Part shown: in pieces, positions 30,001 to 33,000 of the stretch
How the letters are laid out: the number at the start of each line of letters is the position of its first letter
How positions within the stretch are numbered: position 1 is the stretch's first letter
Assembly (NCBI RefSeq): GCF_003018115.1
Contig: NZ_CP027457.1
DNA from: Escherichia coli
Lineage (GTDB): Bacteria; Pseudomonadota; Gammaproteobacteria; Enterobacterales; Enterobacteriaceae
Length of the DNA: 64,000 nt
Strand: one strand, 5' to 3'
Program-made: the position numbers

Positions 30001-33000
30001 ATCTGTAGAGCGTGAGGGGCCGTTCTATTTCCTCTTCGCAGATAAGGACGGAGAAAAATACGGTCGCGCAAACAAACTTTCTGGTCTGGATAAGGCACTG
30101 GCTGCTGGCGCCACTGAAATCACAAAAGAAGAATATTTTGCCCGAAAAAATGGCACATACACGGGCTTACCGCAAAATGTAGATACCGCTGAAGATTCAG
30201 AACAACCAGAGCCGATAAAAGTTACCGCTGAAGAAGTAAACAAAATTATGCAGGCAGCCAATATCAGCCAGCCTGACGCTGATAAGTTGCTTGCTGCATC
30301 ACGTGGTGAATTTGTTGAAGGGATTAGTGACCCGAATGATCCGAAATGGGTTAAGGGGATCCAGACCCGCGATTCTGTGAACCAGAACCAGCATGAATCG
30401 GAACGGAACTACCAAAAAGCGGAACAAAACAGCCCAAATGCGTTACAAAACGAGCCAGAAACGAAACAGCCTGAACCAGTGGCGCAACAGGAAGTGGAAA
30501 AAGTCTGCACCGCCTGCGGTCAGACCGGCGGCGGCAACTGCCCTGATTGTGGTGCGGTGATGGGCGACGCAACATACCAGGAAACATTCGATGAAGAGTA
30601 TCAGGTTGAAGTTCAGGAAGATGATCCGGAGGAAATGGAAGGCGCTGAACATCCACACAAGGAGAACACTGGCGGCAATCAGCATCACGATAGCGATAAT
30701 GAAACTGGCGAGACGGCAGATCACTCAATTAAGGTGAACGGTCATCAAGAAATCACATCCACCAGCAGGACGTGTGACCATCTAATGATCGACCTTGAAA
30801 CCATGGGAAAAAATCCTGATGCCCCGATCATCTCAATAGGTGCAATATTTTTCGATCCGCAAACCGGAGATATGGGACCGGAATTTAGTAAGACTATCGA
30901 TCTGGAAACTGCTGGCGGGGTCATTGATCGGGACACCATTAAATGGTGGCTTAAGCAATCACGCGAAGCGCAATCTGCCATTATGACCGATGAAATCCCG
31001 TTAGATGATGCACTGTTACAATTGCGGGAATTTATCGACGAAAACTCCGGTGAATTTTTTGTTCAGGTCTGGGGAAATGGAGCCAACTTCGACAACACGA
31101 TTTTGCGCCGTTCATACGAACGGCAGGGGATCCCCTGCCCGTGGCGTTACTACAACGATCGCGATGTACGCACAATCGTTGAGCTGGGGAAAGCCATAGA
31201 CTTCGATGCCAGAACGGCTATTCCATTCGAAGGTGAGCGCCATAATGCACTTGATGACGCCCGTTACCAGGCAAAATACGTTTCAGTTATCTGGCAAAAA
31301 CTGATCCCGAGTCAGGCTGATTTTTAATGTTCAACCGTCGCCAGTTGTCGTTGATATTCTGCAACTGGCGCGTTCCGGAGTGATAGCCATGAGCGAACAG
31401 TACCTGATAACGCTCGACGAGTGGAAACCAAAACGGTTCAGTCTCCCAATAACAAACACTACCCTGGTGAAATACGGAAAACTAGGATACATCGTTCCAA
31501 GACCACAAAAAATTCGTGGGCGTTGGCTGATAGATCGCCGAGCAGTATTTGTTGGGCCTGGTGAAACGGGAATTGCGCCGGAAATTCATACTGGCGATGA
31601 TGATGCACTGAAGGAGATTTTAACTCATGTCACCGAGGCCACGAAAAAACAGCACTGACGTAGCCGGTCTTTACGAAAAGTTTGATCGCAGAACTGGCAG
31701 AGTTTACTACCAGTATAAAAATCCTGTGACTGGAAAATTTCACGGACTCGGAACAGACAAAGGTAAGGCAGAAAAAATCGCTTCCACAGCCAATCAGCGA
31801 ATAGCTGCAGCAGAAGCTGAATATTTCATGCGCAAAATTGATGAAAGTCCGTCAGCAACAAAACGTCGGGGTATCAGATTAAAGGCATGGGTTGATCGAT
31901 ATCTGAAAATACAGGACACGCGACTGAAAAATGGAGACATTGCAGCTACAACCCACAAAGAAAAAGTGCGAATGGCTGCATACCTGGTTTCCCGCCTGGG
32001 AAACCACCCATTGAAAGAACTGGAGGTAAGAGACTTTGCATTAATACTGGACGAGTGGATGGATAAAGACATGGTCAGCACAGCAAGAGTAAATCGCGGA
32101 TTATGGGTTGATATTTATAAAGAAGCACAGCATGCGGGAGAAGTTCCTCCTGGATGGAATCCTCCGGAGGCTACCCGTAAACCGATCCCTAAAGTGACCA
32201 GATCCAGACTCACCCTGGAAGACTGGCAAAAAATTTATAATGCAACGCCAGAAAAACACTTTATCCGTAACGCAATGCTTCTTGCGATTGTTACTGGTCA
32301 GCGCCGTGATGACATTTGCCACATGCGTTTTTCAGATGTATGGAATGGACATCTACATATAACCCAAGGAAAAACCGGAATGCGTCTGGCCTTACCTCTT
32401 ACGCTACGATGCGATGAAATTGGGGTATCGTTAAAAGAAGTTATTGATGGATGCAGGGACAGAATGTTGAGTCCATACCTAATCCATAGTAGGCACCAGA
32501 AACAACCAAAACCGATGAGTAAAGACAACCTGAGCGATTACTTCGCCAAAGCGCGAGATCTGGCTGGAATAATTCCACCAGCAGGAAAAACACCGCCAAC
32601 ATTTCATGAACAACGCTCCCTGTCAGAACGGTTGTACCGCGCACAGGGTGTCGATACAAAAACATTACTGGGACATAAAGTCCAGGCTACCACCGATCGC
32701 TATAACGATACCCGAGGTCAGGAATGGGTTAAGTTGGTTATTTAACAAACATCATATGGAATATCCGTCACCATTTCAGGAAAAAAGTGTTGTAAAATGC
32801 GTGCCCTGGTTTTGGGGAAAAGTTTTGGAGAGATTTTGGAGAAAGGAAAAAATTGAATAAATTCAAAATCCTGAAAGTGCCCCGCCTTGTGAATAAAAAG
32901 GTGGAACTCGAATGATCGGTCGACTGCTTCGCGGCGGTTTTATGACCGCTATCTACGCGTACCTGTATATCCCAATCATTATTTTGATTGTGAACTCCTT

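Follow-up and report, generated by a model that had tools for sequence, protein, structure and literature searches.

A probable right-hand attachment site of a lambdoid Stx2-converting prophage at the potB/potC junction of Escherichia coli

The boundary between int and potC

The stretch of DNA analysed here, called the window, comprises 64,000 nucleotides of Escherichia coli (contig NZ_CP027457.1 of assembly GCF_003018115.1). It contains the integrase gene int of a lambdoid prophage, followed by potC and potD of the spermidine-uptake operon potABCD (Table 1). According to the open reading frame (ORF) calls, int ends with its stop codon at 32745 and potC starts at 32912, which leaves a gap of 166 bp (32746..32911), the distance also given in an earlier reading of this DNA that was made from the sequence alone. 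Translated in the frame that closes on the TGA overlapping the potC ATG, 32748..32915 reads NIIWNIRHHFRKKVL, stop, NACPGFGEKFWRDFGERKKLNKFKILKVPRLVNKKVELE, stop. The end of this frame before potC is ...GERKKLNKFKILKVPRLVNKKVELE (...PRLVNKKVELE, stop), with the upstream in-frame stop at 32793. The sequence-only reading had described a PotB-like tail behind hydrophilic, non-PotB codons, and this agrees with our translation, in which the part ahead of the tail also includes the in-frame stop. Native PotB of strain Nissle (285 amino acids, aa) has the C-terminus ...YWRASRLLNKKVELE.

From 32890 rightward, the window matches uninterrupted potB-potC junctions in thousands of E. coli genomes, and 32890-32919 is 100% identical to the empty sites of those strains that carry A at position 32897. 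A tblastn search of the window with PotB returned the 13-residue tail and the paralogous PotC only, and potB itself was not found there, as had been supposed. A second potB copy or a left-hand attachment site (attL) within the window was ruled out by pattern search and tblastn. As judged from these alignments, the PotB-like tail beside potC is true homology with potB and no chance likeness; the peptide is a leftover of the native gene and not a new gene. We consider it very probable that 32746-32915 is the right-hand attachment site (attR) of a Shiga toxin 2 (Stx2)-converting prophage which occupies an insertion hotspot at potB/potC.

Table 1. Features of the prophage and its junction with potC (positions in the window).
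Feature	Position	Strand	Remarks
Right-hand 32.9 kb of a ~46.8-kb lambdoid Stx2 prophage	1..32889		left 13.9 kb and attL outside the window
stx2B	15716-15985	-	NCBIfam Stx2B, 198.1 bits (cutoff 165)
stx2A	15997-16956	-	NCBIfam Stx2A a/c/d, 754.7 bits (cutoff 736)
Three tRNAs upstream of stx2A	17047-17298	-	ARAGORN: Arg(tct), Arg(tcg), Met(cat)
xis, excisionase	31389..31658	+	overlaps the int start
int, lambda-family tyrosine integrase, 372 aa	31627..32745	+	same orientation as potC
Probable attR region	32746-32915	+	right-hand attachment site of the integrated lambdoid Stx2-converting prophage
P arm	32746..32889	+	phage DNA between int stop and core; identical to the P side of the RM10809-3 P-O-P' junction
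Three direct TTTTGGRGA repeats	32810-18, 32823-31, 32834-42	+	putative arm-type sites; pattern search
Phage core-type half-site GCCTTG	32884..32889	+	inverted relative to GAAGGC / AAAGGT across the overlap; read from the sequences
Common core TGAATAA(A/G)AAGG, 12 bp	32890..32901	+	common to attB, attL, attR and attP (four-way alignment)
Probable 7-bp overlap TGAATAA	32890..32896	+	flanks differ left of 32890; A/G at 32897 follows the right flank
potC Shine-Dalgarno sequence AAGGTGG	32898-32904	+	falls, like the ATG, within core or bacterial sequence
Orphaned native potB 3' end (..TG GAA CTC GAA TGA; VELE, stop)	32902..32915	+	identical to uninterrupted potB-potC junctions
potC, intact	32912..33706	+	264/264 identical to PotC WP_000580316.1 of Nissle (unoccupied strain)
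potD, intact ORF of 348 aa	33703..34749	+	ORF list; annotated potD in colinear records

The common core and the probable site of strand exchange

We compared the empty bacterial site (attB) of Nissle, the attL of strains ES5, FWSEC0008 and RM10809-3, the attR of the window and of other lysogens, and a phage-phage junction in RM10809-3. The latter strain (NZ_CP023165.1, O22:H8, ~1,330,500-1,425,200) carries two Stx2 prophages in tandem between potC and potB, and where the two meet, a P arm runs directly into the P' arm of the neighbouring phage, which constitutes a natural P-O-P' site. Given as left flank, core and right flank, attB reads ...CGTCTGC, TGAATAAGAAGG, TGGAACTCGAATGATCGG; attL reads ...CGTCTGC, TGAATAAGAAGG, CAACCGAAATAGATGATTAG; attR of the window reads ...CCGCCTTG, TGAATAAAAAGG, TGGAACTCGAATGATCGG; and the attP-like junction reads ...CCGCCTTG, TGAATAAGAAGG, CAACCGAAATAG.... 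The core, TGAATAARAAGG, is present in attB of Nissle, in attL and attR of FWSEC0008, ES5 and RM10809-3, and in attR of the window, where a pattern search found the 12-mer once against 0 expected occurrences. It spans the potB codons L278(2 nt)-N-K-K-V282(1 nt), i.e., cTG AAT AAR AAG Gtg, and left of 32890 there is no similarity to attB.

The sequence-only reading had placed the prophage at the potB 3' end and the potC start, with the attachment core within the last ~10 codons of potB, and had proposed an alignment to an uninterrupted locus as well as a search for the matching attL. Both are borne out here. The prophage abuts potC, phage DNA ends at 32889, the alignment to Nissle locates the attR core at 32890-32901 in the last 8 codons of potB, and the same core recurs at attL of FWSEC0008, ES5 and RM10809-3.

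Over 22.9 kb, the potB-proximal prophage of RM10809-3 shares 100% of its sequence with the window phage, and this copy stops matching the window exactly at 32901, which provides an independent mark of the boundary. It also bears on the idea that the PotB-like tail, 32880-32915, is a phage-borne mimic within attP, with the bacterial boundary at or after the potC ATG. A weak likeness does extend further left on the phage side (PRLV versus native SRLL; CCGCCTTG versus CGTCTGC), but this is to be expected of core-type integrase-binding half-sites. Moreover, the reconstructed attP and all attL sites leave attB right after AAGG (caaccg... versus tggaac...), and such a divergence straight after AAGG means that 32902-32915 is not phage DNA. 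We attach next to no probability to a mimic.

Within the core, position 8 (32897) is either A or G, a synonymous exchange in the third base of Lys280. At P'-flanked junctions it is G, namely at attL of ES5, FWSEC0008, RM10809-3, EC4115 and GN04592 as well as at the tandem junction. At B'-flanked attR sites it is A in the window, in ES5, in RM10809-3 and in five of six sampled lysogens, and G in FWSEC0008 and NMBU-W12E19. Empty sites have A in ~1334 genomes (about a third) and G in the others. Within RM10809-3, the position reads G, G and A across attL, P-O-P' and attR. The allele at position 8 thus follows the DNA on its right, which confines the exchange to TGAATAA (32890-32896). The reconstructed attP, GCCTTG-TGAATAA-GAAGGC, shows a dyad symmetry that is centred on the same heptamer. 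We infer that TGAATAA is a 7-bp overlap between the inverted core sites GCCTT/AAGGC; the overlap of lambda Int is likewise 7 bp.

If strands were exchanged rightward of position 8, or at any point of the 12-bp core, A/G at 32897 would be a phage allele, and the combination of attL with G and attR with A in one genome (ES5) fits a G host and an A phage equally well. Yet one and the same phage (100% identity across 22.9 kb) reads G next to its P arm at the tandem junction of RM10809-3 but A in the window. When a 70-mer attL with A was compared with 5426 genomes, the best match reached 98.6% and none was perfect, though about a third of the empty sites have A. Beyond position 8, the shared sequence extends rightward by just 4 bases (AAGG), too few for a lambda-type 7-bp overlap, and the symmetry centre is TGAATAA. 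Such a placement is therefore very unlikely in our estimate, and we keep to an exchange within TGAATAA.

The phage half-site next to the overlap is itself polymorphic. Base 32889 is G in the window, in FWSEC0008 and in the RM10809-3 tandem junction, and A in ES5, in attR of RM10809-3 and in all six other sampled lysogens, including one O157 strain.

When the phage collection was searched with the reconstructed attP, a contiguous P-O-P' was found in no deposited phage. Stx1a-phage records in this collection match only the core and P', at the record end. Two records deposited as Escherichia phage, ON470612.1 (vB_EcoS-640R1) and ON470619.1 (vB_EcoS-813R8), match the segment from int over the P arm to the core; in vB_EcoS-640R1 the core is followed by potC and potD, so host DNA is included, and the record was either extracted from a prophage region or derives from a specialised-transducing particle. 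A base-level description of the attachment sites of potC-inserted Stx2 phages was not found in the accessible literature.

The prophage, its recombination module and its relatives

The recombination module resembles that of lambda in several respects. Int carries the Pfam domains Arm-DNA-bind_1 (PF09003, E 7e-21) and Phage_integrase (PF00589, E 1e-18), and it aligns over its full length with the lambda Int structures 1z1b/5j0n (E 4e-55). Compared with 1z1b, the TGQR, HExRS, LLGHK and Y motifs are kept, and with them the catalytic residues R-H-R-Y. Directly upstream and overlapping int lies xis, whose product matches the excisionases of PHROG 629 (E 4.6e-26) and Pfam Exc (PF07825, E 9e-5); its counterpart in near-identical records is annotated as excisionase WP_000003742.1. 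NCBIfam gave no family for int, xis or a 648-aa protein, and PHROGs and Pfam were used for int and xis in its place.

The three TTTTGGRGA repeats are found 48-80 bp ahead of the core; the whole window has four matches, three of them in this 33-bp stretch. A further copy in the same orientation is found ~120 bp into P' of the reconstructed attP, and it persists in O157 and GN04592, whose P' arms have diverged. P and P' together hold four copies in one orientation, compared with 0.35 expected in 11 kb, which suggests that the repeats serve as arm-type Int-binding sites. An arm-binding Int, an adjacent xis, a common core and repeats in both arms are thus present, as is typical of lambda-type sites, and the probable 7-bp overlap with its inverted core sites adds to the likeness. 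Unlike in lambda, the overlap is TGAATAA rather than TTTATAC, the arm motif is TTTTGGRGA, and attB lies within a gene (potB) and not in an intergenic region such as that between gal and bio.

Window positions 1-34534 are colinear with the FWSEC0008 genome (O91:H21; record L007, 15369-49901) at 99.81% identity over 34.5 kb. In FWSEC0008, attL is located at 1494-1505 and attR at 48257-48268 of this record, with 46.76 kb of prophage between the cores, and from this colinearity the attL of the window phage is placed ~13.9 kb beyond the left end of the window. An antiterminator, a DUF6645 protein, which we take to be NanS-p-like, and a holin stand in the expected order of an Stx2-converting phage in the colinear FWSEC0008 annotation, where stx2A and stx2B are flanked by the Q antiterminator / tRNA cluster on one side and by the lysis genes on the other. 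Resolution of the toxin by NCBIfam goes no further than Stx2 a/c/d. The Stx2A tail ...SQSLYTTGE and N16/A24 of Stx2B are signatures of the elastase-activatable Stx2d. In RefSeq, however, the B subunit of the near-identical copy in FWSEC0008 bears the label 'Stx2a subunit B'. RefSeq also annotates the CAT tRNA of relatives as tRNA-Ile, and the three tRNAs would then correspond to ileZ-argN-argO, as is usual in Stx phages. A ParD/ParE-type toxin-antitoxin pair, annotated in FWSEC0008 (L007 35473-36035), corresponds to ~20105-20667 in the early region of the prophage. In RM10809-3, the potC-proximal prophage is annotated with an Stx2c-type B subunit.

Many E. coli prophages in such hotspots are decayed, and the relative in ES5 has frameshifts and an IS66 insertion, so the junction could be the scar of a fixed, defective remnant that lacks active recombination. 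Against this stand the intact int and xis, the full-length Int with its catalytic motifs, and the FWSEC0008 copy, which has all lambdoid modules. Identical phage copies occur in different serotypes and in tandem arrays with a P-O-P' junction; in particular, the 100%-identical copy that forms a tandem with another Stx2 phage in serotype O22:H8 implies a recent integrase-mediated insertion. Frequent loss or re-acquisition at potB has also been inferred (PMC9997748). A mere scar thus appears unlikely, and we retain the interpretation as attR of a probably functional lambda-type integration system.

The insertion site as such is already published. For the Sakai prophage Sp6, a position between potC and potB is reported (PMC8190617), and O157:H7 clade 8 has been described as carrying variable 'PP_potB' prophages (PMC9997748). 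The gene potC is listed as an Stx-phage insertion site with reference to Steyert 2012 in PMC8065619, and PMC9453080 gives second support; the main text of Steyert et al. 2012 (PMC3491183) does not contain 'potC', and the site is presumably given in the figures only. A transcriptome study of Shiga toxin-producing E. coli (STEC) reports fold-changes of pot genes irrespective of lysogen status at the site (PMC7649339) and was not used. In our own count, the int-potC junction occurs in at least 1395 of 5426 complete E. coli genomes (~26%), with at least 80% of a 501-bp probe covered.

Sp6 and the O157:H7 PP_potB prophages are inserted between potB and potC as in the window. The O157 attR is ~96% identical to the window over 32600-33100 and has the same core and arm repeats, and at the O157 attL the core is again the same and the PotB tail nearly so. 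The Sp6-type prophages differ in that they are without stx and have another phage body. Stx2 phages at potC in STEC negative for the locus of enterocyte effacement (LEE) comprise Stx2a_4, Stx2a-1_00-3076, Stx2a-2_RM10466 and Stx2d_EH41 of O113:H21 as well as the O91:H21 phage of FWSEC0008. When these were compared with a 24-kb query, EH41, 00-3076 and 4 showed 94-95% identity over 76-81% of its length; the attL of RM10466 is identical, and FWSEC0008 is 99.8% identical throughout. There is no difference of substance between these phages and that of the window, which is another isolate of the potC-inserted STEC Stx2 phage group.

In the region between attL and the tail-fibre genes, a 109-aa YkgJ-family cysteine-cluster gene stands alone and is transcribed away from attL (L004 666-995, L007 1691-2020 and L005 7023-7352, all outside the window). 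A perfect 14-bp inverted repeat, GGCATGCTTTTTAC/GTAAAAAGCATGCC, is found between this gene and the core. In O157 strain EC4115, espK, beside attL, takes the position corresponding to the YkgJ-family gene.

Observed and possible consequences for the potABCD operon

According to the proposed mechanism, a lambda-type Int, with its Xis, would recombine attP with attB in the last codons of potB. The attP would consist, in this order, of the P arm with its three TTTTGGRGA repeats, GCCTTG-TGAATAA-GAAGGC and the P' arm, with the exchange within TGAATAA. At attL, as seen in relatives, potB keeps residues 1-281, with synonymous K280-K281 codons, and ATEIDD with a stop replaces VELE. What remains at attR is the original end of potB (its final four codons with the stop), the ribosome-binding site of potC and an unchanged potCD, which lies downstream of int, ~47 kb from the potA promoter.

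Some points count against this reading or parts of it. The overlap was deduced from one polymorphic position and the dyad symmetry, not from a cleavage map. The attP rests on the tandem-prophage junction because no free-phage attP was found. The PotB tail of the source strain, whose own attL lies outside the window, is deduced from relatives that are 99.8-100% identical. The sequence-only reading had also suggested that PotB or the expression of potC may be altered; the PotC protein itself is unchanged.

In the lysogens FWSEC0008, ES5 and RM10809-3, PotB is WP_000799399.1, a protein of 287 aa that ends in NKK-ATEIDD; here, six phage-coded residues take the place of the last four of native PotB (NKK-VELE). 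Other lineages have the tails ATEIDN (O157:H7 EC4115) and VSELDD (GN04592). The potB ORF stays open at attL with a phage-coded end in all five strains, and in the three phage lineages the substitute tails have six residues and are acidic like native VELE. PotB with its new tail would be expected to work still. The sequence-only reading had held that the upstream potB copy is fused to phage sequence, and that phage DNA supplies a substitute PotB C-terminus. The fusion is seen in the three lysogens named first and is likely for the source strain from its relatives. A phage-supplied terminus does exist, but it is found at attL, and the tail in the window is the native one.

A comparable arrangement is known from phage 21 and e14 at icd, where a lambda-family integrase acts at the 3' end of a coding gene and diverged replacement codons carried by the phage keep the gene open. 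This case is said to be covered in Campbell's work on prophage insertion sites. The replaced segment of icd comprises ~50 codons and the gene is monocistronic, whereas here 4 codons give way to 6 and the two halves of an operon are separated.

At attR, potC lies behind ~47 kb of prophage that separates it from potA (~93 kb in RM10809-3). The orphaned potB 3' end still overlaps the potC ATG, but untranslated phage sequence now precedes potC, so the ATGA coupling to potB translation is probably lost. A scan of the + strand from xis to potC (31300-33100), a crude consensus match, detected no sigma-70-like promoter, and a dedicated potC promoter can therefore not be claimed. Since no terminator is predicted between int and potC either, read-through from int is the likeliest source of potCD transcripts, and potCD may well be transcribed in this way only. 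A homologue of the DicB cell-division inhibitor (28387-28575, +) and a gene for an 823-aa exonuclease (28856-31327, +) lie ahead of xis-int; they and xis-int are oriented like potC, so leftward early phage transcription would run towards potCD.

In RNA folds, the phage half-site CCGCCUU pairs with the potC Shine-Dalgarno sequence (AAGGUGG), whose predicted probability of being unpaired is 0.01-0.24 in the lysogen versus 0.23-0.44 in the native context. This computed effect would be modest. A structured RNA element at the junction was rejected as an explanation, as the fold of 32730-32930 is nothing unusual (stability z = -0.01) and a search of 31000-34000 against Rfam found nothing at E<=1.

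Whether the insertion is polar or phenotypically silent is a matter of weighing these observations. If polar, potCD would be untranscribed or poorly translated and spermidine uptake via PotABCD effectively abolished. The lack of a promoter-like site between xis and potC, the lost coupling and the less accessible Shine-Dalgarno sequence all agree with this, and the operon has been called disrupted (PMC9453080). On the other hand, PotC is 100% conserved and potD intact in the examined lysogens, O157:H7 included, and three phage lineages all give a short acidic PotB tail which ends after exactly six codons. Read-through remains feasible where int and potC are not separated by a terminator, and a crude consensus match is a limited guide to promoters. 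An effective loss of uptake is a serious possibility, albeit the less probable outcome. More doubtful is the suggestion that the prophage makes potCD, the permease and binding-protein half of the system, depend on phage transcription, i.e., on int read-through that is possibly raised by induction. As part of this tentative scenario, the hairpin between core site and Shine-Dalgarno sequence may further damp PotC translation.

The value of this analysis lies mainly in bookkeeping: phage DNA reaches to 32889, the core occupies 32890-32901, and the exchange likely takes place in 32890-32896. The element is identified as a converting phage for Stx2 (Stx2d-type). A spermidine-uptake operon is split by a prophage at an ordinary, documented junction, to which the base-level core, the probable overlap and a catalogue of PotB tails add small refinements. 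A change of polyamine uptake through the split into potAB and potCD, in the ~26% of genomes with a phage here, would be of modest reach because E. coli synthesises spermidine itself and has other polyamine importers. If potCD did depend on the phage, polyamine uptake would be conditioned by a prophage in a quarter of E. coli strains, O157:H7 included, and the conserved six-codon acidic PotB tails in three lineages would be the outcome of selection acting on the phage for a PotB that stays usable.

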